In this document: positions 8,792 through 46,546 of the stretch, one piece after another
How the letters are laid out: each line of letters opens with the position of its first letter
How positions within the stretch are numbered: position 1 is the stretch's first letter
Assembly (NCBI GenBank): GCA_003151435.1
Contig: PLXP01000144.1
Location: 7,422 to 71,421, forward strand
Direction of reading: 5' to 3'
Length of the DNA stretch: 64,000 nt
DNA from: Acidobacteriaceae bacterium
GTDB lineage: Bacteria; Acidobacteriota; Terriglobia; Terriglobales; Acidobacteriaceae
The notes under the pieces: generated by a model
The model's database searches: none
What the model was told of the DNA's origin: nothing
What the model saw: the letters and a program-made list of their open reading frames with translations, nothing else
Translations under genes and position numbers: made by a program

Positions 8792-9439
8792 CTACCTGCA
8801 ATCTCCATCAACCAGAGCCTTCACTTGGTTGATGAATTGCTTGCCGGCGTCTGGAGAACTCAGCGGGATCAGGAACCGGTAAACGTATCCGTCAAAATCA
8901 ACAAAGTTGTTTGTGGTCCTGGTCTCCTTGATGACTTTAGCCTTTGCCTGTACCTGAAGCCACGTGAAGGTGCATGAGGAGTTTTCAGTGCACACGGAGT
9001 TGGTGTTCCTTTTCAACTGAAGGGGCCGTGCCTCGACCAGCGTCATCGCACCAGCGATCTCGCGCGTGAGAATGAAATCGATTCTGTAGGTCTCGGTATC
9101 CTGCATGTTTTCGATGGATTTTTTGCCCGCGGTTCCGGAGAAAAGATCCACAATCAGGATGTCCATTGTCAACGAGCAGCCATCCAGTTTGGCACTTTGA
9201 ATCGCGCCATAGACCGAACCGCGATAGGAGGCTAACTTGTTGGTCGAATCGATATAGCTTTGGCGATAGAAAAGGGTTGCGCCCGTCTTTCTTTCCTCTT
9301 CGATCACATTGAGGAAGTTCTCTCGCGCTGAAGCTCTCTTTATCTCATTGCCCCCGCTGTTGCTCTGGCAGACGAGGGCCGGCGTTCCTGCCGCGGCCAC
9401 CATCAGGCAAACAAAAATTGCCGCCGTTCGCCACACCAT
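8792..9439 (-). CDS. Hypothetical secreted protein
   Basis: 215-aa ORF with N-terminal signal-like MVWRTAAIFVCLMVAAAGTPALV. No recognisable motif. The codon usage is visibly more A/T-rich than in the neighbours. Confidence 0.5.
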   Translation of the reverse strand: MVWRTAAIFVCLMVAAAGTPALVCQSNSGGNEIKRASARENFLNVIEEERKTGATLFYRQSYIDSTNKLASYRGSVYGAIQSAKLDGCSLTMDILIVDLFSGTAGKKSIENMQDTETYRIDFILTREIAGAMTLVEARPLQLKRNTNSVCTENSSCTFTWLQVQAKAKVIKETRTTNNFVDFDGYVYRFLIPLSSPDAGKQFINQVKALVDGDCR

Positions 9440-9530
9440 GTGTGATTACACCACCTCAATGAACCATGGTAAGTCATTGGCAATCCGAGAAGCTGCGATG
9501 CGCCCTGCGCCCGACTCCCCGCGTGGAGGG

Positions 9531-10484
9531 TTACGGATGGTGTCCCAGCAGAACCCGCGTGCGCTGCCGCGCAATGCGAATGCGGCAAGGGAATCCGACG
9601 GGACCAAAACCGCAAGTCCGGTCCCTCACGCCGATCCATGCTATTTGCTCCGGCTCCAGCATCCACGCAGTCGCATTTGCAGCATTGAGCGTTTCCTTCA
9701 TGAAGTAGGCTGCGCTCATGTCTGCATCGGCCGCAGAGGCGTTCATTTGCCCACACACATTTTGAGGGGGCGCAGGTGTATTGTCTGGATGCCAGCAATA
9801 ATCCTCATCATGCACGAGGACATACTTTCTGCCGTTGTCGGGAATGAAGTAGCGCACCGAAATCTCGGGAACGCGCGCAACGGCAGTCCACCGGCCCACA
9901 TCCTCTGCGAACGCCATGGGAAGCTGACTCATAGCGAGTGAGTCTTGTTTCAATTGCCGCGAAAAGATGGCCAGCGTCGGCGTCGGTTCTCCGTTGACCG
10001 GATGGAAATAGACGCCTCCCAGCGCGATTCCTTCCCTCATGTCAATCCACAAAAACCCGCGGCCGTCGAGGTAGGGCCCGCTGTGGCTGCCCACCATCAC
10101 GTAGCGCCCGTCGCGAATATCGATCGGCAGTGGCGCTCCCTCAAGCAGGGTTTCGCTGGTGTAGAAGAGCGCCATGTCGCGCCCGTAATGATAGGTGGTG
10201 CGAGGCGTCGCCAGCTTTAGCAACGACCGGAATCGCTTGTCTTTCATGATGTCTTTAGTAGTTCGGCCGGCGTAGTCGTTGAGGAACGCAAGTTGATCGC
10301 CGGGGATCGTGTTCTGAAAAACCGCCGGAGGTGCAGCCGGAATGGCGGGCGCGCCCGGGGGCGCTTGAGCTTGCAGGGAAGAAGCCTCGAACGCGAGTGG
10401 CGACAAAAGCATTAGAACGAATGCGGCCTTGAATTTGAACAGAAAGGTTTGGAACGAATGCACAGTAAACCCTCTCGCCCTCAA
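9531..10484 (-). CDS. Hypothetical secreted protein
   Basis: 317-aa ORF with a hydrophobic signal segment (FKAAFVLMLLSPLAFEASSLQAQ). No recognisable catalytic motif. Confidence 0.5.
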   Translation of the reverse strand: MRARGFTVHSFQTFLFKFKAAFVLMLLSPLAFEASSLQAQAPPGAPAIPAAPPAVFQNTIPGDQLAFLNDYAGRTTKDIMKDKRFRSLLKLATPRTTYHYGRDMALFYTSETLLEGAPLPIDIRDGRYVMVGSHSGPYLDGRGFLWIDMREGIALGGVYFHPVNGEPTPTLAIFSRQLKQDSLAMSQLPMAFAEDVGRWTAVARVPEISVRYFIPDNGRKYVLVHDEDYCWHPDNTPAPPQNVCGQMNASAADADMSAAYFMKETLNAANATAWMLEPEQIAWIGVRDRTCGFGPVGFPCRIRIARQRTRVLLGHHP

Positions 10485-10583
10485 TTTAACGTAGAAATGT
10501 GAATTTCACCCGTCATTTTTTCGCGACATCGAAGACGAAGAGGCTCCGAGACACCGAGGCTGTCTCTGGTAAAGTTCTGTGAC

Positions 10584-11390
10584 ATGGACATCCGCCCTCT
10601 TCGCAGCGTGCTGAAACTCGCCGTCTTATCCTTGCTGCCGGTTCTACTGCTCTGCACGGGAACGCATCTTCGCGCACAATCGCCTGCGGCGCAGGTCCCC
10701 GCAGTTCCGGACTGGGCGCAGCCGGGCTCTGCGACACACACCCAGGTGCCGCCGCCGACGGACTTCCATCGACCCACAACGACCGACAACACACCGATCG
10801 GCATCTTCGACGGCCAGTCGGACGTAGGAGGCGCGGTGGTGCCCGGCAGCGCCAGTTATGACGCCGCTACGAAGCAGTACACCATCCACTCGGCCGGCTA
10901 TAACATCTGGTACACGCGCGACGAATTCCGTTTCCTTTGGAAGAAAATGTCCGGCGACGTCTCGCTTGCGGCCGACGCCTCCTTTCCCGATCCCAAGGGC
11001 TACGGCGATCGCAAAGCAGTGCTTGTGATTCGCCAGAACCTCGACGACGATTCAAAGGAAGCCATGCTCGGCGAACACGGCGTGGGCATGATCCACCTGG
11101 CCCAGCGTCCGGAAAAGGGCGCAAGCATCAACGATCTGCAATACCGCTTCGGCGGCGGACTAAACGGCGTGCTGGCCAAGCGCATTGGGATCGAAAAGCG
11201 TGGCGACTCGATCGCCATCTTCATCAGCCTGCAAGACGAGCCGATGCATCAGTTCGGTCCGCCCATCACACTGCACTTTGACGGGCCGTTTTACGTGGGC
11301 ATCGGCTTCTGCTCGCACCTGCCCGCAACGTCGGATACGGCGGTGCTCTCCGACGTGGTTCTGGAGGATGCGGCGGGCAAGGTCCAGTAA
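10584..11390 (+). CDS. Hypothetical secreted protein, beta-sandwich (concanavalin/DUF1349-like?)
   Basis: Signal peptide MDIRPLRSVLKLAVLSLLPVLLLCTG. The beta-rich body contains YNIWYTRDEFRFLWKKMSGDVSL. The fold assignment is a weak guess. Confidence 0.5.
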   Translation: MDIRPLRSVLKLAVLSLLPVLLLCTGTHLRAQSPAAQVPAVPDWAQPGSATHTQVPPPTDFHRPTTTDNTPIGIFDGQSDVGGAVVPGSASYDAATKQYTIHSAGYNIWYTRDEFRFLWKKMSGDVSLAADASFPDPKGYGDRKAVLVIRQNLDDDSKEAMLGEHGVGMIHLAQRPEKGASINDLQYRFGGGLNGVLAKRIGIEKRGDSIAIFISLQDEPMHQFGPPITLHFDGPFYVGIGFCSHLPATSDTAVLSDVVLEDAAGKVQ

Positions 11391-18619: not shown

Positions 18620-20059
18620 ATGAGCCCATCAGAGATTTCTCGCCGCACGGTGCTGCGTGGCGCTGCGCTGGGCGCGGCGGTGCTTGCCTCTGGCGCCGAC
18701 AAGCTGCTGGGCGAATCGGTCCAGGCTCCGCCCAACATCGTTTTCATCCTTGCTGACGATATGGGTTACGCCGATATTTCCTGCTACGGACGACCCGACC
18801 TCCACACTCCGAACATCGATAGTCTTGCATCGCGCGGAATGCGCTTTCTGCAGGCCTACGCCAACTCCGCGGTCTGCTCGGCCACGCGCACCGCTCTGAT
18901 TACCGGACGCTATCAGGACCGCCTCGATGTTGGTCTCGACGAACCGCTCGTCGGACGCGACACCGGTTTGCCTCCGAGCCATCCCACGCTGCCTTCGCTC
19001 CTGCGCAAGGCCGGATATGGGACCACCCTTGTGGGCAAGTGGCATCTGGGCTTGCTGCCCAAATATGGCCCGCTGCATAGCGGCTACGACCACTTTTATG
19101 GTTTTCGCGGCGGCGCGGTCGACTACTTTACACACTCCAACGACCTGTGGGACGAAGACATCAAGGTCCAACAGGTTGGCTACCTGACTGATTTACTCGG
19201 CAACCACGCCGTCAATGTCATCAACGGCTACGCCAAGGCCGGAAAGCCCTTCCTGTTGAGCTTGCACTTTAATGCTCCTCACTGGCCGTGGGAGGGGCCG
19301 GGAGATGAGGCCGAGTCCCGGCGGCTCAATGGCCATGGGCTCGTCGATTTTGACGGCGGTTCGCAAGGGACCTTTGAGCGCATGATCGAGGACCTCGATC
19401 TCCAGGTTGGGCGAGTGATCGATGCGCTTCACGCTGGCGGCATCATCGACAACACAATCGTTATTTTCACGAGCGACAATGGAGGCGAGCGCTTCGCCGA
19501 TACCTGGCCATTTACAGGCCGGAAGACAGAGTTGCTTGAAGGCGGTTTGCGGATTCCGGCCATCATTTCGTGGCCCGCCCGCATTGGCAAGGGCCAAACC
19601 ACCAATCAGGTGGCGATCAGCATGGATTGGCTGCCAACGCTTCTTGCTGCTGCCAGCACAGGGCCCGATGCCGCGTATTCACCCGACGGCATTAACCTGC
19701 TGCCATTTCTATCCGAAGGCGCCACGCCGGTTCCGCGCAAGCTCTTTTGGCGCTACAAAGCCAATGCCCAGCACGCGACGCGCGATGGCGATATGAAGTA
19801 TCTCAAGATTCTAGATAATACATTCCTGTTCAACGTCGTTGAGGATCCTATGGAGCGCGCCAATCTGAAGGAACGCATGCCCGACGTTTACAGCCGCCTG
19901 ATCGCGGAATGGGCCGCTTGGAATGCCGCCATGCTGCCGGAGATCGATGAGAGCTACACCGGCAACTTCACCGGGGCCGAACTCGCCGATCACATCGGTA
20001 CGCCAGAAGCCAGCCACAAAGCCGATAACCCACCTTCCGTGACGGCTCCTGATCGCTGA
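18620..20059 (+). CDS. Tat-exported arylsulfatase-family hydrolase
   Basis: Twin-arginine signal SRRTVLRGAALGAAVLASGA. NIVFILADDMGYADI and the formylglycine site CSATRTALITGRY (C-x-A-x-R variant). Confidence 0.85.
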   Translation: MSPSEISRRTVLRGAALGAAVLASGADKLLGESVQAPPNIVFILADDMGYADISCYGRPDLHTPNIDSLASRGMRFLQAYANSAVCSATRTALITGRYQDRLDVGLDEPLVGRDTGLPPSHPTLPSLLRKAGYGTTLVGKWHLGLLPKYGPLHSGYDHFYGFRGGAVDYFTHSNDLWDEDIKVQQVGYLTDLLGNHAVNVINGYAKAGKPFLLSLHFNAPHWPWEGPGDEAESRRLNGHGLVDFDGGSQGTFERMIEDLDLQVGRVIDALHAGGIIDNTIVIFTSDNGGERFADTWPFTGRKTELLEGGLRIPAIISWPARIGKGQTTNQVAISMDWLPTLLAAASTGPDAAYSPDGINLLPFLSEGATPVPRKLFWRYKANAQHATRDGDMKYLKILDNTFLFNVVEDPMERANLKERMPDVYSRLIAEWAAWNAAMLPEIDESYTGNFTGAELADHIGTPEASHKADNPPSVTAPDR

Positions 20060-20368: not shown

Positions 20369-22378
20369 TTACTGGCACTCCGCCTCGAACGGCAGGAACA
20401 ACGCAAACGCCGTTCCGCTGCTGCCTTGCCGCTGCGAACTGCGCACCCTGAGCGTGCCGTGATGCCGGTTGACAATCTCCTGGCACACCCACAGCCCCAA
20501 TCCATTCCCCGCGGTGCCTTTTGTCGTGAAGAAGGCATCGAAGATATTCTTCCGCGCCGCCGGGCTGATCCCTGTGCCGGTGTCGCCGATGGTAAGAACC
20601 AGCCCCGCCTTGCCCGTCGCCCAGTTTCTTCCGCTGCGGCTGCGGATCAACAATCGTCCGCCAAACGGCATCGCCTCCAGCGCGTTGCCCACCAGGTTGT
20701 TCAGCACCTGGCGCACGTCGCCCTGAAAGCATACCGCCGGCTTGTCGGTCCTGAATCGCTTCTCCACCTTCACTCGCGCGTTGCGAAGGCGCCCCTCGTA
20801 AATGCTCATCACGGTTGAGTACAGGTCGGCGCCGCTTGCGGCCTGCGGCTTCGAGGCCTGCTTGTGGAAGCGCAGCGTCTGGTTGGCGATGATGGAGACG
20901 CGGCGAATCTCCTGGTCCGCAAGGTCGAGATATTCCCGGGCTTTGGGAGTCTCGGCCTGACGCGCCAGGTAGATCAGGTTCATCACCGACTCCAGCGGAT
21001 TGTTAATCTCATGCGCGATGGACGATGCAAGCCGCCCCACGGCAGCCAGCTTTTCACTTTTCAGCAACGCCGATTCGGCTCGCCTGAATTCAGTAATGTC
21101 CCGTCCTTCGGGAACCAGAAAGAGCACTCTTCCGTCTGTGTCCCGAACCGGCGTGAGCGAGAAATCGAAGATCCGCGTCTCTCCCGAAGGCCGGTTGAGC
21201 GATGCTTCATAGCGCACAAACTCCCCCGCGGCGGCGCGTGCCATCGCCGCCCGCAACGCCTCGGGTGCGCCCGGCGTGCCCGCGAACCAGGGCGAATCGG
21301 CCAGGCCCTTGCCTACCACCTCCGTGCGGTCAGTTCCGGAAAACTCCAATGAGGCGCGGTTGCAATCGACGATCACCCCATCCGGCGTCAGCAGACCGAT
21401 GTACCCCAGGCTGGTGGTGTACATGGCCTTGAGCCGCGCTGCGCTCTCGCGCAACGCCTCGGCTTCCGCTCGCTGCCTTGTAATATCGCGAAACACGAGC
21501 ACGATCCCCGCAAGCGCCCCGTTGTCATCCAGAACCGGCGCTCCGCTGTCGTCGATTGCGGTCTCACTTCCGTCCTTGCGAATCAGGATTGTATGGTTGA
21601 CGAGTTCCACCGCGGTTCCAAGCCGACGCACCTTTTCCGCTGGGCTCTCCACCGGTTCGCGCGTGCCCTCATCCACAGTGTGGAAGACCTGCTGGAGCGG
21701 ATCGCCTTTGGCTTCTTCTAATCGCCAGCCGGTGAGGTTCTCGGCCACGCGGTTCATCTGAACCACGCGGGCCTCGGAGTCCGTCACAATCACCGCATCG
21801 CCGATGCTCTGCAAGACGCGCGTGGCGCGGGCTTCGCTTTCACGAAGATCGCGCGTGGCCATTACCTCGCCCGTCACATCCTGCATTAAGCCGAAGAGGC
21901 CTGCGATCTTGCCCTCCTCAAAGACGGGGCTGAACGTATAGTCGAGGGAAGAATCCTGCACCCCGCTGCCGGAATCGATCGGCACCTGCAGCTTTCGGTG
22001 CGAAAACATCGTCCCCGTGGCGTAAGCCTCCTCCAGCAGCGGCCCCACAATGGGCCACGATTCCTTGTAGACCTCCCGGGCAGGCTTCCCTAGGGCCTCG
22101 GGGTGCCGTTTCCCCGGTATCGGCCGATAGCCATCGTTGTAAATCAGAATCATGTCCGGACCCCAGAGGGTTCTTGCCGGGGCCGGCGAGCACAAGGTGA
22201 GGTTCACGATGGCGACCAGTTCCCGGGACCAGCCTTCAATGGGGCCCACGGGCGTGGAACTCCAGTCATGACTGCGGACCAGCTCCGCCATCTCCCCCAC
22301 GCCCACAATGCGGGCTGCCGCAGTCTCGCACGAGCCGGACTGCGGGGGCGATGGTTTTGCTGATCTGAACAAGCTCAT
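20369..22378 (-). CDS. Multi-PAS sensor histidine kinase
   Basis: GGAGG SD. Several PAS/PAC modules, the HisKA H-box SSIAHEINNPLESV, and HATPase N/G boxes (LNNLVGNALEAM, IGDTGTGI, GNGLGLWV). Confidence 0.85.
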   Translation of the reverse strand: MSLFRSAKPSPPQSGSCETAAARIVGVGEMAELVRSHDWSSTPVGPIEGWSRELVAIVNLTLCSPAPARTLWGPDMILIYNDGYRPIPGKRHPEALGKPAREVYKESWPIVGPLLEEAYATGTMFSHRKLQVPIDSGSGVQDSSLDYTFSPVFEEGKIAGLFGLMQDVTGEVMATRDLRESEARATRVLQSIGDAVIVTDSEARVVQMNRVAENLTGWRLEEAKGDPLQQVFHTVDEGTREPVESPAEKVRRLGTAVELVNHTILIRKDGSETAIDDSGAPVLDDNGALAGIVLVFRDITRQRAEAEALRESAARLKAMYTTSLGYIGLLTPDGVIVDCNRASLEFSGTDRTEVVGKGLADSPWFAGTPGAPEALRAAMARAAAGEFVRYEASLNRPSGETRIFDFSLTPVRDTDGRVLFLVPEGRDITEFRRAESALLKSEKLAAVGRLASSIAHEINNPLESVMNLIYLARQAETPKAREYLDLADQEIRRVSIIANQTLRFHKQASKPQAASGADLYSTVMSIYEGRLRNARVKVEKRFRTDKPAVCFQGDVRQVLNNLVGNALEAMPFGGRLLIRSRSGRNWATGKAGLVLTIGDTGTGISPAARKNIFDAFFTTKGTAGNGLGLWVCQEIVNRHHGTLRVRSSQRQGSSGTAFALFLPFEAECQ

Positions 22379-22691: not shown

Positions 22692-23762
22692 ATGACAACG
22701 GCTTATATCAATCGCATCGCGACAGCAGTCCCGCGGCATGATGTGCACCGGCCGTTTGTCCAGTTTGCCGAAGGCATGCTGCCCGAGGGCACGGTGCGCA
22801 ATCTCTTTCGGCGCATGGCTCGTATGTCGGCCATCGAACACCGCTACTCATTCCTGCAGCCCATCTCCACGGACGACTCGACGTGGCGCGATGCGGAAAA
22901 CCTCTATGTGACCGGAAATTTTCCTCCCACCTCGCGCCGCATGCAGGCCTTTGAGAACTTTGCTCCGCTGCTGGCGCAATGCGCGCTCGACAAACTTGCC
23001 CTCACGGATGAGGAACGCCGCTCCGTCACGCACGTCATCGTCACCTCCTGCACCGGCCTCTACGCTCCGGGTCTCGACTTCGACATCGTCAAGCACCTTG
23101 GCCTCAGCACCTCCGTCGAACGCACCATGATCGGCTTCATGGGATGCTACGCCGCCATCAACGCATTGAAGTCAGCGCATCACATCGTGCGCTCGGAACC
23201 CCAAGCCAAGGTTCTCGTCCTGAATCTGGAACTCTGCACGCTCCACCTGCAGGAAACAAAAGATCTGGAACAGATGCTCTCGTTCCTGCTCTTTGCGGAT
23301 GGTTGCGCGGCGTCCCTGATCAGCGCGCAACCGCAAGGGTTGGGCATCGACAGTTTTCTTGCCATCCAGCTTCCCGACACAAGCCATCTCATTACGTGGC
23401 GCATTCGCGAGATGGGATTCGACATGCAACTCTCCGGCCAGGTTCCCGCCGAGATTCGTCGCACCCTGAAGGATTCGGGCTCTCAAGTCACGCGCGGAAA
23501 AGATCCGCAGGCCATCGATCTCTGGGCCGTGCACCCGGGAGGCCGTTCCATCCTCGATGCCGTGGAGCAGGGCCTTGGTTTGCCGGGCGATGCGCTCCGC
23601 TACTCGCGCGACATCCTCGCGCGTTACGGCAATATGTCCTCCGCCACCGTGATGTTTGTCCTGCAGCAAGTGCTGGAGCACGCACAGGCACGGCAGCAAG
23701 GCTGTGCCATGTCGTTTGGCCCCGGAGTCACGGCGGAGACCATGCTCTTCCATGCCGCCTAG
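22692..23762 (+). CDS. Type III polyketide synthase (chalcone-synthase superfamily)
   Basis: AAGGAG SD. Cys-His-Asn triad contexts VTSCTGLYAPG, WAVHPGGRSILD and YGNMSSATVMF, plus FADGCAA. Confidence 0.9.
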   Translation: MTTAYINRIATAVPRHDVHRPFVQFAEGMLPEGTVRNLFRRMARMSAIEHRYSFLQPISTDDSTWRDAENLYVTGNFPPTSRRMQAFENFAPLLAQCALDKLALTDEERRSVTHVIVTSCTGLYAPGLDFDIVKHLGLSTSVERTMIGFMGCYAAINALKSAHHIVRSEPQAKVLVLNLELCTLHLQETKDLEQMLSFLLFADGCAASLISAQPQGLGIDSFLAIQLPDTSHLITWRIREMGFDMQLSGQVPAEIRRTLKDSGSQVTRGKDPQAIDLWAVHPGGRSILDAVEQGLGLPGDALRYSRDILARYGNMSSATVMFVLQQVLEHAQARQQGCAMSFGPGVTAETMLFHAA

Positions 23763-24474
23763 CACGCCCGATTTTCGCCGCCGCGCGCAACTCTCCGAAC
23801 TCATGGACGGGCCTTGCACTCGCGAGCAGTTGCGCGCCTGCCTCCGCGATCTCGCCAGGGTCAACCGCCTGGTGTTGGCCTATCGGCCTCTGCTCGCGTG
23901 GCTCAACAGCTTTCGATTCTCATCATCCGCGGAGCCCCTTCGCATCCTCGACGTGGGCTCCGGTTATGGCGACGGGTTGCGCCGCATCGAACGTTGGGCA
24001 CACAAGCGCGGCATCGCCGTGGAACTCACAGGGCTCGACATGAACCCCGACTCCACCGCCATCGCCGCCGAGGCCGGGCCTCCAGAATGTCGAATTCAGT
24101 GGGTCAGCGGCGACGTGTTTTCGTACTCCCCACAACGGTCCCCTCATCTCGTCGTCAGTTCGCTCTTCACGCATCATCTGGCCGACGCTGACGTGGTCCG
24201 CTTCCTGCGATGGATGGAGCAGAACACTGAAATGGGATGGTTCATCAACGACCTTTCGCGAGCCCCCATTCCGTACCACCTCTTCCGCATCTTCTCAAAG
24301 CTCGCGGGGTTTCATCCCTTCGTGCAACACGACGGCCCCGTCTCCATCGCCCGCTCGTTCGTGCCGGAAGATTGGCGCGGCCTGTGCGCTGCGGCAGGGC
24401 TAAACGATAGCGACGTTTCCATCGTCGGATTCAAGCCCGGACGACTCTGCGTTAGCCGGAGAAAACTGCAATGA
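23752..24474 (+). CDS. Class I SAM-dependent methyltransferase
   Basis: ATG 23752 overlaps the PKS stop (ATGCCGCCTAG). Motif I is ILDVGSGYGDGL. Confidence 0.75.
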   Translation: MPPSTPDFRRRAQLSELMDGPCTREQLRACLRDLARVNRLVLAYRPLLAWLNSFRFSSSAEPLRILDVGSGYGDGLRRIERWAHKRGIAVELTGLDMNPDSTAIAAEAGPPECRIQWVSGDVFSYSPQRSPHLVVSSLFTHHLADADVVRFLRWMEQNTEMGWFINDLSRAPIPYHLFRIFSKLAGFHPFVQHDGPVSIARSFVPEDWRGLCAAAGLNDSDVSIVGFKPGRLCVSRRKLQ

Positions 24475-25640
24475 CCGCGCCGAGGTCGATGCCCATGCCG
24501 AAGCCGAAGCCGAAGCCCAATCCCAATGTTGATAATCTCGTCATCGGCGGCGGTCTCGCCGGCGCCATGGCAGCCATGCGCCTTGCCGCCGCGGGCCGTG
24601 ACGTGGCGCTGCTGGAGAAAGAGCCGGCCGCACATCACAAGGTGTGCGGAGAGTTTCTGAGCCCCGAAGCGGTTGCGTATCTGCACCAGGCAGGCGTCGA
24701 CCCCGTCCGTCTCGGTGCTGTGCCCATCCGCTTTCTGCGCCTCTCCGCGAAAAGCAGGGTCGTGGAAACCGCATTGCCCTTCACCGCGCTCTCGCTCTCG
24801 CGTTGCGTGCTCGATGAAGCTCTTCTCGCGCGTGCCGCAGAGCAAGGATGCGACGTGCGTCGCGGCGTTTCTGTCGAGAAACTCACGCAACGCGCAGACA
24901 CATGGGTCGCAAAATTGTCCGATGAAAGTTTGCAGAGCGCCCACACGGCCTTCCTCGCCACGGGAAAGCACGATCTGCGCGGGTGGACTCGCATGCCCGG
25001 CAAGCACAACGATCTCGTCGGCTTCAAACTGCATTGGCGATTGGCGACGGCGCAGACCGAGGCGCTGCGCCAGTTCATGGAACTCTTCCTCTTCTCCGGT
25101 GGTTACGGAGGGCTTTCGCTCGTCGAAAACGATACCGCCAATCTCTGCCTCGTGGTGCGGCGTTCCACGCTGCGCAAACTGCGCGGATGGAACGAACTGC
25201 TGGCAGCGCTGCGGCTTGAGAACCGCCACATGCAGCAGCGCCTTGAAGGTGCGCAGCCGCTGTGGCAGCGGCCGCTGGCCATCTCTCCCATTCCCTACGG
25301 CTACCTGGCGACCAGGCCGCACGGCCTGTGGTGTGTCGGCGACCAGGCCGCTGTCATTCCCTCATTCACCGGCGATGGCATGTCCATCGCGCTGCATTCG
25401 GGCGCGCTCGCCGCACAAATGCATCTGGCCGGCGACACATCGGACCAGTATCATCGCGCGCTTCAATCGCAGTTGAAGTCCGGCATGGGTCTGGCGACAT
25501 GGCTTTCTCGCGCGATGGTCACGCGCGCCGCCCGCGAACTCGTTCCTTTGGGTGTCTCGTTGTTTCCCAGGGCAATCAAGAGCATTGCCACGTCGACGCG
25601 CATTCCGTCGCACGCGCTTCTTGCCGCATCGCCGCAATAG
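24471..25640 (+). CDS. FAD-dependent oxidoreductase/monooxygenase (geranylgeranyl-reductase-like)
   Basis: ATGA start/stop overlap with the methyltransferase. Dinucleotide fold VIGGGLAGAMAAMRLAAAGRDVALLEKE, GEFLSP, and GDQAAVIPSFTGDGMSIAL (GD motif). Confidence 0.75.
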   Translation: MTAPRSMPMPKPKPKPNPNVDNLVIGGGLAGAMAAMRLAAAGRDVALLEKEPAAHHKVCGEFLSPEAVAYLHQAGVDPVRLGAVPIRFLRLSAKSRVVETALPFTALSLSRCVLDEALLARAAEQGCDVRRGVSVEKLTQRADTWVAKLSDESLQSAHTAFLATGKHDLRGWTRMPGKHNDLVGFKLHWRLATAQTEALRQFMELFLFSGGYGGLSLVENDTANLCLVVRRSTLRKLRGWNELLAALRLENRHMQQRLEGAQPLWQRPLAISPIPYGYLATRPHGLWCVGDQAAVIPSFTGDGMSIALHSGALAAQMHLAGDTSDQYHRALQSQLKSGMGLATWLSRAMVTRAARELVPLGVSLFPRAIKSIATSTRIPSHALLAASPQ

Positions 25641-25654
25641 GGCCAGACAAAAAA

Positions 25655-27109
25655 TCACACTGCGAGGAAGGCGACGATTCCCACCGCTGCACCGATCACC
25701 AGGCTCATTTTGTCGGTCAGGGCAAATACCACGGGGTCTTCGTTGAGTTCACCGCGCGAGGCCAGCAGCCATACCCGGCAAAGCCAAAGCACCATCAACG
25801 GCAAGATCAGCCAGAGCCATTGCGTGTGTCGATAGAGAATCGTCACGTCGTGGCTCCCAATGTAGTTGGCGAACACCACCACCGCTGCAAACGCGCTCGC
25901 GGTTCCGAAGGTTCGTATCTGTTCGATGTCAGCCACCAGGTACCCGCGGCCGTTATTTGGCTTCGAACCGAGGATGCGCATGTTCTCCAACTCGGCAAAG
26001 CGTTTGACAATGGCCAGCGACAGAAACAGAAAGATCGAGAACCCGCTCAGCCAATGCGAAATCGGCGTGTGCGTTGCCGCGCCGCCTCCCAGCAAACGCA
26101 GTGTATACAGTCCCGAGAGCACCAGCACATCCACCAGGGCAATGCGTTTCAGATAGGTGGAGTATGCCATGGTCGTGGCCAGGTAGAGCAGCAGCCAGCC
26201 TCCGAAGCGAAAGGGAAGATAGTGCGTTCCGCAGATCGCCAGCGCCAGGAAAACGGCAACAATGCCAAACCCTGTGAGTGCGGAGAGATCTCCTGACGCA
26301 AAGGGACGCTGCCGCTTTTGTGCATGACGCCGGTCCGCCTCAATGTCGAACATGTCGTTCACAATGTAAGCGGCTGAAGCGCTCAGGCTGAAACAGCAAA
26401 AGGCCATAAACGAGTGCAGCACTTTGCCGTGCGTGAACCGGTGCGCCAGCAGCATCGGAGCAAACACCAGCAGATTCTTCGCCCATTGATGCACGCGCAC
26501 GGCCTTCAACATGGTCCTCAGAGAATGAGGCCGTTCTTCAAACACGCGCGTTGGCACAATGCCGCGCGATCGCAGCCCTCTGCGCAGCGCCGCGCTCGGA
26601 TTAGCCACCATCGCCTCGGATGCGTGTGCCAGCAGCGGTAGATCGGGGCTGGCGTTGCCAATGTAATCAAAAGCCTCGGAGCCGAGATGAGCGCGCAACC
26701 CGTCCAGCTTGCGCTTTCCGGTCAGGTTGGTGGCTCCATCGCTGCCCAGCACCCCGCTGAAGATTCCAAGATGGTCGGCGACACGGCGCGCAAGGCGCAG
26801 GTCCGCGCCCGTCGCCAGGTAGATTGCTCGCCCTCGCGCCCGCTCCTGCTGCAAAAACTGCAGCAGCTTGCGGTTGTAGGGCAGATGCGCCACATCCAGC
26901 GATACTGACTCCGTGACGTATGCCTTGAAAGCCGCCTTGCCGCGAAAAAGCCGTCCGCAAAGCGCCGGCAAACGCCCCGGCCGGGTCCGCGCAAGCACCA
27001 GCAGCGAATCGACCAGCGTATCCGACTTGACGAGTGTGCCATCCAGATCGACGCAAAGTGGACGCAGCACTGCGGCGGGAGCTTCCGGCTCAAGAATGGT
27101 AGTTGCCAA
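25655..27109 (-). CDS. HAD-phosphatase / UbiA-family (decaprenyl-phosphate phosphoribosyltransferase-like) fusion protein
   Basis: TTG start with GAGGTGA SD. N-terminal HAD motif I CVDLDGTLVKSD. The C-terminal polytopic domain carries NDMFDIEADRRHAQKRQRPFASG. Confidence 0.8.
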   Translation of the reverse strand: MATTILEPEAPAAVLRPLCVDLDGTLVKSDTLVDSLLVLARTRPGRLPALCGRLFRGKAAFKAYVTESVSLDVAHLPYNRKLLQFLQQERARGRAIYLATGADLRLARRVADHLGIFSGVLGSDGATNLTGKRKLDGLRAHLGSEAFDYIGNASPDLPLLAHASEAMVANPSAALRRGLRSRGIVPTRVFEERPHSLRTMLKAVRVHQWAKNLLVFAPMLLAHRFTHGKVLHSFMAFCCFSLSASAAYIVNDMFDIEADRRHAQKRQRPFASGDLSALTGFGIVAVFLALAICGTHYLPFRFGGWLLLYLATTMAYSTYLKRIALVDVLVLSGLYTLRLLGGGAATHTPISHWLSGFSIFLFLSLAIVKRFAELENMRILGSKPNNGRGYLVADIEQIRTFGTASAFAAVVVFANYIGSHDVTILYRHTQWLWLILPLMVLWLCRVWLLASRGELNEDPVVFALTDKMSLVIGAAVGIVAFLAV

Positions 27110-27356
27110 CCGCTCACCTCATCGAGGATCGCTGACTAGCCCCAATGCACGTTTGCTGTGGGAAGTAACCGATCGCTCAATTGGACTGTTTTCCAGGGAA
27201 GGCCGCCCGTCACATCCTGACTGCAGGAAATGAACCGGCCCTCTGGGTGCAGATACACTCGCTGCCCACTGGTCAGGAACGTTTTTAGTATACAGTCGCC
27301 TCTAAATCCTTGAAAACCGTGCGGAATAAGGGGACAGGGGGAGAGAGTTGGAAACA

Positions 27357-27375
27357 CGCGGCCAGGGCGGCCGCG
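27357..27375 (-). terminator. Hairpin immediately 3' of tRNA-Ala
   Basis: On the minus strand: CGCGGCC-GCCCT-GGCCGCG followed by UGUUUCC. A 7-bp GC stem lies 7 nt after the CCA end. Confidence 0.4.
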
Positions 27376-27382
27376 CAAATTT

Positions 27383-27458
27383 TGGTGGAGCTGAGCGGGA
27401 TCGAACCGCTGGCCTCCTCGTTGCGAACGAGGCGCTCTCCCAGCTGAGCTACAGCCCC
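27383..27458 (-). tRNA. tRNA-Ala (anticodon CGC)
   Basis: The reverse complement GGGGCTGTAGCTCAGCTGGGAGAGCGCCTCGTTCGCAACGAGGAGGCCAGCGGTTCGATCCCGCTCAGCTCCACCA folds as a 76-nt cloverleaf. It has the G3:U70 Ala identity pair, anticodon loop TTCGCAA and an encoded CCA. Confidence 0.95.
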
Positions 27459-27596
27459 ACGACTTCCTTATCTTATCAGCGAGTAGAGAATCGCGGAAGG
27501 GGCGGAGTCACGGCCCGGCACGAAATACCACCGGTCGGTTTAGGCCAGGGGCGTCGGGACTGCACCCCGACCTTCCACGCCCCCGGCCCTCCCCAC

Positions 27597-28847
27597 CTAA
27601 AGCTGGTTCATGTTGGCCAGGAACTCGGCGTTATTGCGTACCTTCTCGAGACGGCTGATCAACAACTCCATAGCCTCGACGGGCGACAACGGATTGAGTA
27701 CCTTGCGCAGAATCCAGATGCGCTGCAATTCTTCCTTCGGAATCAGCAGCTCTTCCTTGCGGGTGCCCGACCGCTGGATGTCGATGGCCGGGAACACCCG
27801 CTTGTCCACCAGCTTGCGGTCCAGAATGATTTCCATGTTGCCGGTGCCCTTGAACTCTTCAAAGATGACTTCGTCCATGCGCGAACCGGTATCCACCAGC
27901 GCCGTTGCAATAATTGTCAGAGACCCGCCCTCTTCAATGTTGCGGGCCGCGCCAAAGAAGCGCTTGGGGCGCTGCAAAGCGTTCGAATCCACGCCTCCCG
28001 ACAGCACCTTGCCCGACGGGGGCACGATGGTGTTGTAGGCGCGCGCCAGGCGGGTGATCGAATCCAGCAGAATCACCACGTCGCGCTTGTGCTCCACCAG
28101 TCGCTTGGCCTTTTCGATCACCATCTCCGCCACCTGTACGTGGCGAGCCGCCGGCTCGTCAAAGGTGGAACTGATCACTTCGCCCTTCACCGACCGCTGC
28201 ATGTCCGTAACTTCTTCAGGCCGCTCGTCGATCAGCAGCACAATCAGCACGACGTCGGGGTGATTGGTGGAGATAGAGTTGGCGAGCGACTGCAACAGCA
28301 TGGTCTTGCCGGTGCGGGGCGGGGCGACGATGAGGCCGCGCTGGCCCTTGCCCACTGGGGTCAGCAGATCCATCACCCGGCCACTGGTGGCCTCGCGTAC
28401 GGTCTCCAGCTTGATGCGTTCCTGCGGATAGAGCGGCGTCAGGTTGTCAAACAGAATCTTGTTGCGCGTCTCTTCGGGCGACTCGAAGTTGATGGCTTCA
28501 ATCTTGACCAGCGCGAAATATTTTTCGCCTTCATGCGGCGGGCGCACGTTACCGCTGATCGAGTCGCCGGTCTTCAAATCGAACTTGCGAATCTGCGAGG
28601 GCGAAACGTAGATGTCGTCGGGGCCGGGCAGATAGTTGTAATCGGGCGAGCGCAGAAAGCCGTAGCCGTCGGGCAATATTTCAAGCACGCCCTCGGCAAA
28701 GATGTGGCCCTCTTTTTCGCTCTGGGCCTGGAGAATCTTGAAAATAAGATCCTGCTTGCGAAGACCGCTGGCGCCCGGAATCTCCAGGGTGCGCGCGATG
28801 CGGCTTAGTTCCGTGATGTTTTTCTCTTTGAGTTCAGCGATGGTCAT
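27597..28847 (-). CDS. rho: Transcription termination factor Rho
   Basis: [23 protein letters not shown] (Rho N-terminal domain), RNA-binding [17 protein letters not shown], Walker A APPRTGKT and [14 protein letters not shown] 28847 follows AGGTGA; the track starts at a TTG at 28859. Confidence 0.95.
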
Positions 28848-29073
28848 GTTCACCTGCAACGGGGCGGGATGGTAGTGAGGGAGAGTCGGAGAGGGGAATG
28901 TGCTCCGGGAAGTAAGGCAGGAGTTCGTTACGGCAGTTGACGCGGCCGCGCCTTGCAGCTTATCCCGAACTCAGTCAGTGGAGTATGAAAACACCGGGAA
29001 GAGCGGCCCCCTTGCACAGGAAAGCCGCCAGAAACCGTGACTTACTCAACTATACGCTTTTCGGGAAACCCGG

Positions 29074-44971: not shown

Positions 44972-46546
44972 ATGTCCGTCGCAAACATTCCCCGGCTTTC
45001 CCCTACCCGCCGTTCTTTCTTCGCTCGCCCCCATGCGCGGCTGGGTCTGGGGCTCGCCATTGGACTTGTCATGCTGTTGATCGTGGGCCTTGTCTTCATC
45101 AGCGCCAACTGGCCCTATCGCTATCGCAAAATTCACCCTCTGCTTGAAGACGTGCTCTCCAGCCAGGTCAAGGTTTACCAGTACCATCGCACCTACTTCC
45201 CCAACCCCGGCTTTGTCGCCATCGGTCTCACGCTGCGCCGCAAGTCCGCGCCCGATCTTCCGCCTCTCGGCTCTGCGGAGAAGATGGTTGTGCAGGGCCG
45301 TTGGAGCGACCTCTTCCTGCTTCGCCAGCGCGTGCAACTCGTCGAGATCACCAACCTGCACATCGTCGTGCCGCCCATCGGAAGCCGCGCCAATCATGAA
45401 GACTTCCCGCCCGGCAGTGCCGCAGACTTTGCCGGTCCCGACACCACAATCGAACATCTGCATATTCACAACGGCGCTCTCGACATCCTGCGTAAAGATG
45501 GCGGCCGCTTCTCCTTCCCGATTCACGACCTCCATCTCCGCAACTTCGCAAAGGGCAAAGCCATGCACTACGAAGTTGATATGCAGAACGCCAAGCCCAC
45601 CGGCCTCATTCAAGCCACGGGCAGCCTCGGTCCCATCGCAGCAAAAGACATGGGCTCCACGCCGGTATCCGGTAACTTCACCTTCACCTCCGTCGCCCTT
45701 CATGACGTGGGCAACATCAGCGGAACCCTCTCTTCATCGGGTCATTTCGATGGCACCCTGGTAGCCATGGAAGCCGAGGCCAACTCCACCACCCCCGACT
45801 TCGCCGTCGACAAAGGCAGGCCCACGCCCGTTGCCGCCTCCATCCAATGCACGGTGAACGGCGTCAATGGCGACGTGAACATCCACAGCATCGAGGCAAA
45901 GATAGGCGCAACCACCATTCACGCCGTCGGCGTCGTCGCGGGCTCGCCCAAGGTCACCAACTTCGACATCTCCGTCACCGGCGGCCGCGCGGAAGACGTC
46001 CTCCGGCCCTTCATGCACAACGAGGTCCCCATCCTCGGTCCCGTTCGCCTTCACAGTCATGCCTATATCGCACCCTCCGCCAAAGGCGAAGGATTTCTTC
46101 AGCGCCTGCGCGTCGATGGCACCTTCGATGTTCCCACCGAACGCCTCACCGATAGCTCGACCCAGAAGAGCGTCTCCGACTTCAGCCAGCGCGCCCAGGG
46201 CGGCAAGGCCGACGATAAGTCCTCGCCCGATGCGCTGTCCTCCATCAAGGGTCCCGTGCAGATTCGCAACGGGATCGTCTCGTCGCCGCATCTTGTTTTT
46301 CAGGTCCCCGGCGCGGAGGCCAATGTCAGCGGCACCTTCCAACTTCACGGTCAGGTTGTCCACCTGGTTGGCGATCTCAAGATGGAGTCGGATATTTCGC
46401 ACGCCACCACCGGCTTCAAGTCGTTCCTGCTGAAACCGTTCGCGCCGTTTTTCAAGAAGCGCCGCGCCGGCGCGGTAATCCCCATTGCCGTCACCGGCAA
46501 TTCGGGCCACTACAAGGTGGGCCAGGACATTACGCATTCAAAATAG
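44972..46546 (+). CDS. AsmA-like membrane-anchored protein
   Basis: N-terminal TM anchor (LGLGLAIGLVMLLIVGLVFI) and a beta-rich body. The C-terminus NGIVSSPHLVFQVPGAEANVSGTF...VIPIAVTGNSGHYKV resembles the AsmA-family C-terminal region. The family call is tentative. Confidence 0.55.
   Translation: MSVANIPRLSPTRRSFFARPHARLGLGLAIGLVMLLIVGLVFISANWPYRYRKIHPLLEDVLSSQVKVYQYHRTYFPNPGFVAIGLTLRRKSAPDLPPLGSAEKMVVQGRWSDLFLLRQRVQLVEITNLHIVVPPIGSRANHEDFPPGSAADFAGPDTTIEHLHIHNGALDILRKDGGRFSFPIHDLHLRNFAKGKAMHYEVDMQNAKPTGLIQATGSLGPIAAKDMGSTPVSGNFTFTSVALHDVGNISGTLSSSGHFDGTLVAMEAEANSTTPDFAVDKGRPTPVAASIQCTVNGVNGDVNIHSIEAKIGATTIHAVGVVAGSPKVTNFDISVTGGRAEDVLRPFMHNEVPILGPVRLHSHAYIAPSAKGEGFLQRLRVDGTFDVPTERLTDSSTQKSVSDFSQRAQGGKADDKSSPDALSSIKGPVQIRNGIVSSPHLVFQVPGAEANVSGTFQLHGQVVHLVGDLKMESDISHATTGFKSFLLKPFAPFFKKRRAGAVIPIAVTGNSGHYKVGQDITHSK

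Follow-up and report, generated by a model that had tools for sequence, protein, structure and literature searches.

Polyprenyl-P-ribofuranose is made from PRPP by ORF15 of C. youngae, a protein in which a HAD phosphatase at the N-terminus is joined to a UbiA phosphoribosyltransferase at the C-terminus (Kelly et al., PNAS 2024; PMC11127046). The product of the ORF15 assay with PRPP was farnesyl-P-Ribf, reported at m/z 435, and the D18A variant accumulated the 5-phosphorylated product, with some dephosphorylated product remaining (PMC11127046). The same authors proposed undP-Ribf as the common entry point to Araf and Xylf (PMC11127046). The closest solved structure to the protein studied here is that of M. 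tuberculosis Rv3806c, a UbiA-type decaprenyl-phosphate 5-phosphoribosyltransferase (PDB 8J8J/8J8K, PMC10994848). In this enzyme Q135 contacts ribose O3; UbiA prenyltransferases do not conserve the sites that bind phosphoribose (PMC10994848).

Here we analysed a fusion gene in a window of 64,000 nucleotides (the whole stretch of DNA under study) from an Acidobacteriaceae bacterium. The gene very probably codes for an ORF15-type polyprenyl-phosphate ribofuranose synthase that is bifunctional and embedded in the membrane, and the enzyme most likely makes lipid-carried ribose for decorating cell-surface glycans. What we established directly is the domain architecture and fold, the conserved catalytic residues, the family to which the protein belongs and the neighbourhoods of the gene in relatives; the activity, the lipid and the final acceptor we infer. 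Public annotation describes homologues only as, for example, "UbiA family prenyltransferase", which the ORF15-type reading corrects.

The fusion gene and its family

The gene and its parts are located as follows:
27114-27120, minus strand: Shine-Dalgarno-like GAGGTGA, 4 nt 5' of the fusion TTG (the strand reads ...GAGGTGA-gcgg-TTG)
25655-27109, minus strand: HAD phosphatase/UbiA-fold polyprenyl-phosphate phosphoribosyltransferase fusion gene, predicted to be bifunctional (ORF and translation: 484 aa, TTG start, stop codon 25655-25657)
26540-27061, minus strand: N-terminal HAD-fold domain, predicted phosphoribose 5-phosphatase (PRP), approximately residues 17-190 (Pfam PF12710, AF2 model, Foldseek)
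27035-27049, minus strand: HAD motif I DLDGT, residues 21-25, with D21 as predicted nucleophile and counterpart of C. youngae ORF15 D18
25658-26524, minus strand: C-terminal polytopic UbiA-fold domain, predicted polyprenyl-phosphate 5-phosphoribosyltransferase (PPPRS), approximately residues 196-484 (Pfam UbiA, phmmer, Foldseek)
26333-26359, minus strand: cytoplasmic-loop motif NDMFDIEAD, residues 251-259, predicted Mg2+/PRPP-binding Asn/Asp

The HAD motif CVDLDGTLVKSD comprises residues 19-30 of the fusion protein and the Asp-rich motif NDMFDIEADRRHAQKRQRPFASG residues 251-273. Both Pfam domains scored above their cutoffs, UbiA with 73.8 bits (residues 217-462) and HAD PF12710 with 31.6 bits (residues 21-137). 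Scans for promoters and terminators near the gene yielded nothing above shuffle expectation. The fusion stop codon faces a flavoprotein ORF that ends at 25640, leaving a gap of 14 nt. In three independent peat metagenomes, single contigs run across 23500-27409 with 0-1 mismatches, so the junction between the fusion gene and the operon containing this flavoprotein is real. An earlier note on this DNA had described the 484-aa ORF with its TTG start and GAGGTGA Shine-Dalgarno sequence, HAD motif I and the Asp-rich UbiA motif (DLDGT; NDMFDIEAD...), and the 14 nt between the two stops; all of this was confirmed, the ORF on the minus strand and the gap from the coordinates.

The fusion protein has more than 6860 homologues, the closest with 99% identity and many with 68-74% over the full length. 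The NCBIfam model NF006088 (PRK08238) matched it with 583.1 bits (cutoff 351), residues 15-484 corresponding to model positions 11-480 of 482. To place the UbiA domain within its superfamily, we ranked HMM scores and folds. DPPR-synthase models scored 120-140 bits; none of the other UbiA-type models, among them those for aromatic and other prenyltransferases (UbiA, MenA, heme O synthase, GGGP/DGGGP synthases, homogentisate phytyltransferase; cutoffs 180-350), exceeded 47 bits. The scores with the equivalog models NF008976/7/8 were below the cutoffs (140.4 vs 207, 134.3 vs 234 and 120.6 vs 474, respectively). Since these cutoffs were missed, the fusion protein is, judged by its sequence, a sister branch to Rv3806c and no strict orthologue. 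The best PDB sequence match was 8j8j (Rv3806c; phmmer E 6e-30). In Foldseek, the AF2 model (pLDDT 93.8, pTM 0.89) matched 8j8j with TM 0.86, rmsd 2.7 Å and 31% identity, whereas AfUbiA gave TM 0.72 and 16% identity, and prenyl-diphosphate-using UbiA enzymes overall TM 0.66-0.72 and 15-18%. HMM scores and Rv3806c as closest sequence and fold thus agree with the earlier assignment of the UbiA domain to the phosphoribosyltransferase branch. The HMM searches that the note had proposed gave the Pfam UbiA and PF12710 domains above cutoffs and NF006088 over the full length, and the NCBIfam UbiA and MenA models stayed well short of their cutoffs.

The PRPP site was compared using eleven Rv3806c residues (R22, K28, Y70, N73, D77, K87, R90, Q135, Y138, K143 and Y157; PMC10994848). 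In the phmmer alignment ten of them are identical in the fusion protein (R205, K211, Y248, N251, D255, K265, R268, Y316, K321 and Y335), with N251 and D255 aligned to N73 and D77 (roles from PMC10994848), and each of the ten is at least 95% conserved among 147 family representatives. The eleventh, Q135, is replaced by T313, a position held in the family by T (106), S (23) or N (10 of 147). Each of N251, D252, D255 and D259 occurs in 146 of the 147 representatives; these loop II residues and R370/E373 of loop IV (R-x-x-E) are invariant in the family alignment and are found in 144-147 of the 147 representatives.

For the catalytic cycle we propose that the C-terminal nine-helix UbiA-fold domain would move 5-phosphoribose from cytoplasmic PRPP to polyprenyl phosphate, probably undecaprenyl-P, with Mg2+ held by N251 and D255, pyrophosphate by R205, K265, R268 and K321, and the 5-phosphate by K211, Y248 and Y335. 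The cytoplasmic N-terminal HAD domain (nucleophile D21; D23, T100, K134, D156) would take off the 5-phosphate. After flipping of the polyprenyl-P-beta-D-ribofuranose across the membrane, a GT-C glycosyltransferase would attach its pentofuranose to a surface glycan; an earlier epimerisation of the polyprenyl-P-ribofuranose to arabinofuranose or xylofuranose may occur in some genomes. That phosphoribosyl transfer and dephosphorylation take place in one polypeptide had been suggested in the earlier note, and it is supported by the HAD and UbiA motifs and by the biochemistry of ORF15, which has the same architecture (PMC11127046). The enzymatic idea is not new, as it corresponds to a published and biochemically proven enzyme type.

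Partner genes and the phosphatase step

No flippase, GT-C, DprE1/E2 or ORF13-like gene was detected in the 64-kb window by tblastn, Pfam and hydropathy. A tblastn search of the window with the DprE1/E2-like, GtrA, SMR, EamA, LPG-synthase-TM and putative GT-C proteins of relatives found nothing, Pfam scans of 30 further window ORFs and a hydropathy scan revealed no GT-C, GtrA, MATE, SMR or DprE homologue, and the hydropathy scan showed no protein with eight or more TM segments. The downstream pathway in the source organism is therefore not seen in this stretch, and the partners of the fusion enzyme may be encoded elsewhere in the genome. A 486-aa ORF (27348-28808, plus strand) considered as a possible partner had no Pfam hit and is a shadow of the minus-strand rho gene.

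Conserved neighbours of the fusion occur in other phyla and in two Acidobacteriaceae; they are genes for DprE1/DprE2-like epimerases, for carriers of the GtrA/SMR type and for glycan synthesis. A DprE1-like and then a DprE2-like gene follow the fusion in six loci (L005, L023, L030, L033, L038 and L056), and L032 has the DprE1-like gene only. The order in Cereibacter and Ruegeria is fusion, GtrA, DprE1-like, DprE2-like and a hypothetical protein of ~500 aa; in Jannaschia the fusion lies in an O-antigen-type cluster, and in Sinorhizobium it occurs with an epimerase and an SMR carrier. Synthase, flippase (MATE/GtrA/SMR) and GT-C are encoded together in L038, L039, L059 and L060.

These neighbourhoods bear on the identity of the final sugar donor. 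It is possible, though we think it rather unlikely, that the product of the phosphoribosyltransferase is epimerised by enzymes encoded elsewhere, so that the physiological donor would be polyprenyl-P-arabinofuranose (or xylofuranose) and not ribose. The proposal of undP-Ribf as a shared entry to Araf and Xylf (PMC11127046) is consistent with such a route, as are the Acidobacteriaceae loci L005 and L023 and many Proteobacteria, in which the fusion is immediately followed by a DprE1-like gene (270 bits to PDB DprE1) and a DprE2-like gene. However, the 64-kb window contains no DprE1/E2-like or ORF13-like gene, and most Terracidiphilus loci are without DprE1/E2-like genes near the fusion. An epimerised donor would refine the main explanation and does not contradict it. 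The ORF15-type synthase predicts that a surface glycan of abundant soil Acidobacteriaceae bears pentofuranose (Ribf, Araf or Xylf); near-identical acidobacterial homologues number thousands in peat and soil metagenomes.

Searched alone, the HAD domain gave only a marginal sequence match in the PDB (3fvv, E 0.8), and a fold search was therefore needed. The HAD part of the AF2 model has a Rossmann-like beta/alpha pattern, and Foldseek matched the N-terminal part to the HAD-IB protein 3fvv and to SerB phosphoserine phosphatases. Among the 147 representatives, D21 and D23 were each found in 146, T100 in 127 (S in 20), K134 and G151 each in 145, and D156 in all 147. Position 152, the first acidic site of motif IV, is Asn in the fusion protein; N occurs here in 89 and D in 52 of the 147 sequences. 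Since the two residues alternate within the family, Asn152 is, as far as the alignment tells, a family trait and no sign of decay. This Asn in place of Asp, together with the dephosphorylated product still formed by ORF15 D18A, which makes the HAD contribution not absolute, could speak for an inactive or regulatory HAD domain and the release of polyprenyl-P-ribose-5-phosphate. With the nucleophile/acid Asp, motif II Thr/Ser, motif III Lys and motif IV Asp 87-100% conserved across these diverse representatives, we consider this very unlikely.

The adjacent type III PKS operon

The surroundings of the fusion gene comprise the following features:
22692-25640, plus strand: operon of type III PKS (22692-23762), SAM methyltransferase (ends at 24474, start uncertain) and FAD oxidoreductase (24471-25640), SrsABC/HidABC-like and convergent with the fusion gene (Pfam, NCBIfam)
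27383-27458, minus strand: tRNA-Ala(CGC), a conserved anchor that bounds the variable interval with the fusion gene on one side (Rfam 66 bits, ARAGORN)
27597-28859, minus strand: gene for the transcription termination factor rho, on the same strand as the fusion gene and upstream of it (Pfam Rho_N, Rho_RNA_bind, ATP-synt_ab)

The tRNA-Ala(CGC) gene lies beside rho in 6 of the 13 relatives scanned (L003, L008, L021, L040, L051 and L053), and also in L018 and L026. Fusion gene and PKS operon are both inside the variable interval from tRNA-Ala(CGC)/rho to dnaJ, and they stand tail-to-tail because both modules sit in this interval, not because they share a pathway.

We attach very little probability to the idea that the stand-alone PRP-PPPRS, widely retained in Terracidiphilus and related Acidobacteriaceae and detached from glycan loci, could supply polyprenyl-P-pentofuranose for an undescribed envelope modification, and that beside a PKS operon (source genome, L026) the acceptor could be a phenolic lipid, giving a ribosylated alkylresorcinol or alkylquinone.

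Slightly less probable still is the extension made in the earlier note, with the PKS-derived lipid as acceptor or partner: the lipid-linked ribose, or the enzyme itself, would glycosylate or modify the alkylresorcinol or alkylquinone of the adjacent type III PKS-methyltransferase-flavoprotein operon to give a pentosylated phenolic lipid. The two modules do adjoin in the window across the 14-nt gap and adjoin again in L026, in the other order and head-to-head; a carrier-protein/thioesterase protein is encoded a few genes downstream of the fusion in L005, and a type I PKS follows the fusion in L031 (Rhodobacteraceae). The last was rejected as support for a polyketide link, with three other Rhodobacterales records showing glycan, GtrA and DprE contexts; other Rhodobacterales have the fusion in glycan clusters and not in PKS clusters. 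When the count of fusion-PKS adjacency that the note had called for was made on 31 acidobacterial loci centred on the fusion, a single one had a PKS operon within 8 kb. With this count and its position on the opposite strand, the fusion gene fails as a member of an SrsABC-like operon. The operon is also present without the fusion across L040-L054: four distinct relatives (L040-42, L049-50, L051-52 and L053) have it at the same place in the chromosome, in the order dnaJ-HK-PKS-MT-(FAD)-tRNA-rho, in another clade (L043-48) it stands in an unrelated setting with aroDE, and tblastn detected no fusion remnants in relatives with the PKS operon alone. At least 12 loci, in turn, lack the PKS operon and have the fusion no more than ~3 kb from dnaJ. 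A trio of PKS, methyltransferase and oxidoreductase genes is known to form a module complete in itself (PMC10896814). RNA contigs from two soil metatranscriptomes show transcription of the fusion gene, at 26513-27023, and do not cover the PKS operon, which is weak evidence against the link. Given the adjacency in one of 31 loci, the operon kept without the fusion in four relatives, and the glycan genes that neighbour the fusion elsewhere, we did not retain the phenolic-lipid link.

Least probable of all is an aromatic prenyltransferase role (AgqD/UbiA/MenA-like) for the UbiA domain, which would then prenylate the neighbour operon's alkylresorcinol with prenyl diphosphate. A precedent exists in Actinoplanes, where the type III PKS cluster for prenylated alkylresorcinols includes a UbiA-like prenyltransferase (cited in PMC10896814), and NDxxDxxxD is common to the whole UbiA superfamily, but prenyltransferase models stayed far below the phosphoribosyltransferase models, the fold is nearer to Rv3806c than to UbiA homologues, the 5-phosphate/pyrophosphate K/R cluster of Rv3806c, not conserved in UbiA prenyltransferases (PMC10994848), is kept, and a fused phosphatase would have no role in prenyl transfer. 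The ORF15-type synthase brings no new mechanism, its chemistry having been established in 2024 and the phenolic-lipid link failing comparative genomics.

Comparison with described systems

The SrsABC, HidABC and planctomycetal operons for alkylresorcinol and alkylquinone synthesis have the same three-gene make-up as the neighbour operon; the fusion gene differs from members of such operons in lying on the opposite strand and in not being conserved with the operon. AgqD, the UbiA-like prenyltransferase of the Actinoplanes alkylresorcinol cluster, sets the precedent for an enzyme of this family working on the product of a type III PKS, whereas the UbiA domain of the fusion belongs to the phosphoribosyltransferase branch and not to the aromatic prenyltransferase branch.

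Among the phosphoribosyltransferases, the PPPRS of P. aeruginosa PA7/Pa5196 (pilin D-arabinofuranosylation), compared by its description, is likewise from a Gram-negative bacterium and feeds DprE1/E2-type epimerases, but it is unfused (PMC11127046). A DprE1/E2-type arrangement as in this pathway is found beside the fusion in L005, L023, L030, L033, L038, L056, L059 and L060. In P. syringae B728a the PRP fused to the PPPRS is described as C-terminal (PMC11127046), in contrast to the N-terminal HAD domain here. Rv3806c shares with the fusion protein the NDxxDxxxD...H..K..RP.A.G loop, but it has no HAD domain, and dephosphorylation is carried out by the separate, unrelated Rv3807c; the lipid is C50 for Rv3806c and probably C55 for the fusion protein.

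C. youngae O1 ORF15 (AWU66546.1) belongs to an O-antigen locus that also encodes a MATE flippase and a GT136 GT-C, to which serotype O2 adds an epimerase. The fusion gene, from a host of another phylum (Acidobacteriota), differs in having no partner gene within 64 kb and housekeeping neighbours (rho, tRNA-Ala, dnaJ). In both proteins a HAD domain is followed by a nine-TM UbiA fold, and the predicted reaction of the fusion protein is that of ORF15: PRPP and polyprenyl-P would give polyprenyl-P-Rib-5-P and then polyprenyl-P-Ribf. Compared by the residue numbers printed in the paper, D18, N247, D248, D251, D255, R366 and E369 of ORF15 correspond to D21, N251, D252, D255, D259, R370 and E373 of the fusion protein. 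The offset in numbering is constant, +3 for D18/D21 and +4 for the residues of the UbiA domain, and all ORF15 residues named in PMC11127046 have an invariant counterpart in the fusion protein family.

The HAD-UbiA fusion gene and its family

The fusion gene, predicted to encode a polyprenyl-phosphate-ribofuranose synthase, converges on a type III polyketide synthase (PKS)-methyltransferase-FAD oxidoreductase operon. Re-reading confirmed everything the earlier note had stated about its sequence (ORF, TTG start, GAGGTGA, both motifs and the 14-nt spacing).

Features of the fusion gene and its upstream flank (window coordinates or residues)
25655-27109, minus strand: fusion ORF, 484 aa, TTG start, read from the sequence
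27114-27120, minus strand: Shine-Dalgarno-like GAGGTGA, 4 bases 5' of the TTG start
25655-25657, minus strand: fusion stop codon, 14 nt from the end (25640) of the convergent flavoprotein ORF
Residues 19-30 of the translation: HAD motif CVDLDGTLVKSD
Residues 251-273 of the translation: Asp-rich motif NDMFDIEADRRHAQKRQRPFASG
27383-27458, minus strand: tRNA-Ala(CGC), between rho and the fusion gene
27597-28859, minus strand: rho (Rho_N, Rho_RNA_bind, ATP-synt_ab)

The junction between PKS operon and fusion gene is no assembly artefact, since individual contigs in three independent peat metagenomes run through 23500-27409 with 0-1 mismatches. In two soil metatranscriptomes, RNA contigs of low depth cover 26513-27023, within the fusion gene; the same two datasets had none for the PKS operon, which is weak evidence because contigs tell presence, not absence. 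The 486-aa ORF at 27348-28808 (plus strand) was rejected as a gene: it matched no family and merely shadows rho on the opposite strand. Several further long ORFs in this window of 60% GC are opposite-strand shadows of the same kind. ORFs with good coding scores and no Pfam match were seen at 797-3070 (minus strand), 44972-46546 (plus strand) and 8792-11390; the Pfam-unmatched ORFs encode 757 and 524 aa, with signal-peptide-like N-termini, and 215, 317 and 268 aa.

In the fusion protein, Pfam detected UbiA at residues 217-462 (73.8 bits) and HAD (PF12710) at residues 21-137 (31.6 bits). The whole protein matched NCBIfam NF006088 (PRK08238) at 583 bits versus a cutoff of 351, over model positions 11-480 of 482. 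Next came three decaprenyl-phosphate phosphoribosyltransferase models (120-140 bits, each under its own cutoff), whereas the aromatic, heme O, GGGP and other UbiA-type models scored at most 47 bits; the HMM searches proposed in the earlier note thus found both domains and ranked phosphoribosyltransferases above other UbiA types. A collection clustered at 90% contained more than 6860 matches, the top 120 of which (68-99% identity) came from Terracidiphilus/Acidobacteriaceae of soil and peat. The 50%-cluster library gave 3333 representatives at E ≤ 1e-30, and nearly all of the best 150 were full-length fusions of about 480 aa.

The closest solved structure by sequence was the M. tuberculosis decaprenyl-phosphate 5-phosphoribosyltransferase Rv3806c (8J8J; E 6e-30, fusion residues 198-417). 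With an alignment of 66 sequences as input, AlphaFold2 gave a confident model (pLDDT 93.8, pTM 0.89), whose membrane domain superposes on 8J8J with a TM score of 0.86, an rmsd of 2.7 Å and 31% identity; UbiA prenyltransferase homologues reached TM scores of 0.66-0.72 at 15-18% identity. According to a fold search, the modelled N-terminal domain resembles HAD-IB proteins (3fvv) and SerB phosphoserine phosphatases.

The PRPP/Mg2+ ligands of Rv3806c are R22, K28, Y70, N73, D77, K87, R90, Q135, Y138, K143 and Y157, and conservation of the phosphoribose-binding sites does not extend to UbiA prenyltransferases (PMC10994848). The ligands align, in order, to fusion residues R205, K211, Y248, N251, D255, K265, R268, T313, Y316, K321 and Y335, so that ten of eleven are identical, the exception being Q135 (T313). 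Across 147 sequences, each representing a 50%-identity cluster, every one of the ten is kept in at least 95%. The HAD catalytic residues are equally well retained in these 147 (D21 in 146, D23 in 146, T100 in 127 with S in 20, K134 in 145, G151 in 145, D156 in 147), and position 152 is N in 89 and D in 52.

A variable interval shared with the PKS operon

The earlier note had raised the PKS-derived lipid as a possible acceptor or partner of the enzyme and proposed counting the adjacency elsewhere. The count does not support this link: PKS-methyltransferase-FAD genes lay within the flanks at one of 31 fusion-centred Acidobacteriota loci (L026), divergently oriented and on the opposite side of the fusion gene from that in the window. 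At 12 or more loci the fusion gene stands about 3 kb or less from dnaJ-grpE-hrcA without the operon, and at 16 rho is upstream of it. Conversely, where the nearest PKS homologues lie on long contigs, in four distinct relatives (L040-42, L049-50, L051-52, L053), the order is dnaJ, PAS kinase, PKS-methyltransferase-(FAD), tRNA-Ala, rho and Mg-chelatase-like ATPase (no tRNA detected in L049), and the fusion gene is absent, with no remnants found by tblastn. In another clade (L043-48) the operon adjoins aroDE. The trio is a known self-contained module (PMC10896814).

The tRNA-Ala(CGC) recurs beside rho in many relatives and also starts the L026 interval. Between it and dnaJ, genomes carry the fusion gene only, the kinase and PKS operon only, both, or extra genes. 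From the fusion- and PKS-centred comparisons and the recurring tRNA, the stretch is therefore a variable interval, which behaves as a genome-plasticity hot spot; no integrase was seen in it. We conclude that the fusion gene and the kinase-plus-PKS module are retained independently, and that their adjacency reflects a shared plastic locus and is no evidence for a common pathway.

The PAS/PAS/HisKA/HATPase sensor kinase (20369-22378, minus strand) is divergently paired with the PKS operon (22692-25640, plus strand). Every relative in which the operon occupies this position (L040, L049, L051, L053) keeps the pairing, which suggests a role for the kinase in regulating phenolic-lipid synthesis; no nearby response regulator was seen. 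A TAT-signal sulfatase (18620-20059, plus strand) between kinase and dnaJ occurs in this genome only; in relatives, the kinase directly adjoins dnaJ or a PMT_2 GT-C glycosyltransferase intervenes (L040:5221-7203). The longest methyltransferase ORF (23656-24474, plus strand) begins at a TTG and shares some 107 nt with the PKS gene. In relatives the called gene starts either roughly 10 nt ahead of the PKS stop or past it, which puts the probable true start near 23752-23800. In one relative (L051/L052, 11061-12163) the methyltransferase gene following PKS is directly succeeded by tRNA-Ala and rho; the flavoprotein gene is absent, and the operon's own three-gene make-up is thus variable too.

Relation to the Citrobacter youngae ORF15 pathway

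As described by Kelly et al. (PNAS 2024, PMC11127046), the C. youngae O1 enzyme ORF15 combines an N-terminal HAD-family phosphoribose phosphatase with a C-terminal UbiA-family polyprenyl-phosphate phosphoribosyltransferase. Its pathway has three components (synthase, flippase and GT-C) and optional epimerases, ORF13 leading to xylofuranose and DprE1/E2 homologues to arabinofuranose (PMC11127046). No flippase, GT-C or epimerase genes were found across the 64-kb window. In L005, L023, L030, L033, L038 and L056, the next two genes after the fusion encode a DprE1-like oxidase and a DprE2-like SDR; in L032 only the oxidase gene was seen. Against PDB DprE1 the oxidase scored 270 bits; with the NCBIfam DprE1 model it reached 377-396 bits (cutoff 500), and the SDR reached 185-192 bits with the DprE2 model (cutoff 250), both below threshold. 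On plasmids of Cereibacter and Ruegeria the order is fusion, GtrA, DprE1-like, DprE2-like and an unannotated protein of about 500 aa; in Sinorhizobium, genes for an NAD-epimerase, a 658-aa polytopic protein and an SMR carrier accompany the fusion, and Jannaschia has it within an O-antigen-type cluster. These informative neighbours fit a pentofuranose pathway.

A 2148-aa type I PKS (KS-AT-KR-DH-ACP-TE) follows the fusion in L031:9693-16139 (Rhodobacteraceae), an isolated case among otherwise glycan-type Rhodobacterales contexts. Equally isolated, L005:12870-15893 (Acidobacteriaceae MAG) has the fusion, DprE1-like, DprE2-like and FkbM methyltransferase genes in this order, and after them a gene whose 1007-aa product contains carrier and thioesterase domains. 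The 969-aa version in L037:5507-8413 (Azospirillum lipoferum plasmid), followed by an EamA-family carrier gene, begins with an additional hydrophobic, polytopic domain of some 490 aa that by eye resembles GT-C enzymes; this protein may be a three-domain pathway fusion.

ORF15 membranes formed farnesyl-P-ribofuranose from PRPP, as confirmed by MS and NMR, and the 5-phosphate product built up with the D18A mutant; loop II residues N247, D248, D251 and D255 are required for normal activity (D251A retained some in vivo), and activity was kept in R366A and E369A (PMC11127046). By the residue numbers printed there, D18, N247, D248, D251, D255, R366 and E369 correspond to fusion D21, N251, D252, D255, D259, R370 and E373, all invariant columns in the 66-sequence alignment. 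The offset is constant (+3/+4), and the two proteins are therefore collinear. The proposal of the earlier note that one polypeptide performs phosphoribosyl transfer and dephosphorylation holds as a predicted function, given the same architecture demonstrated for ORF15 and the conserved residues; the lipid carrier is one that we infer. The main value of the assignment is that a widespread vague annotation is corrected, and it predicts that the abundant Acidobacteriaceae of soils bear pentofuranose on surface glycans. The enzyme type itself is already known, having been proven in 2024 with ORF15; what is new is its acidobacterial member, with its predicted activity.
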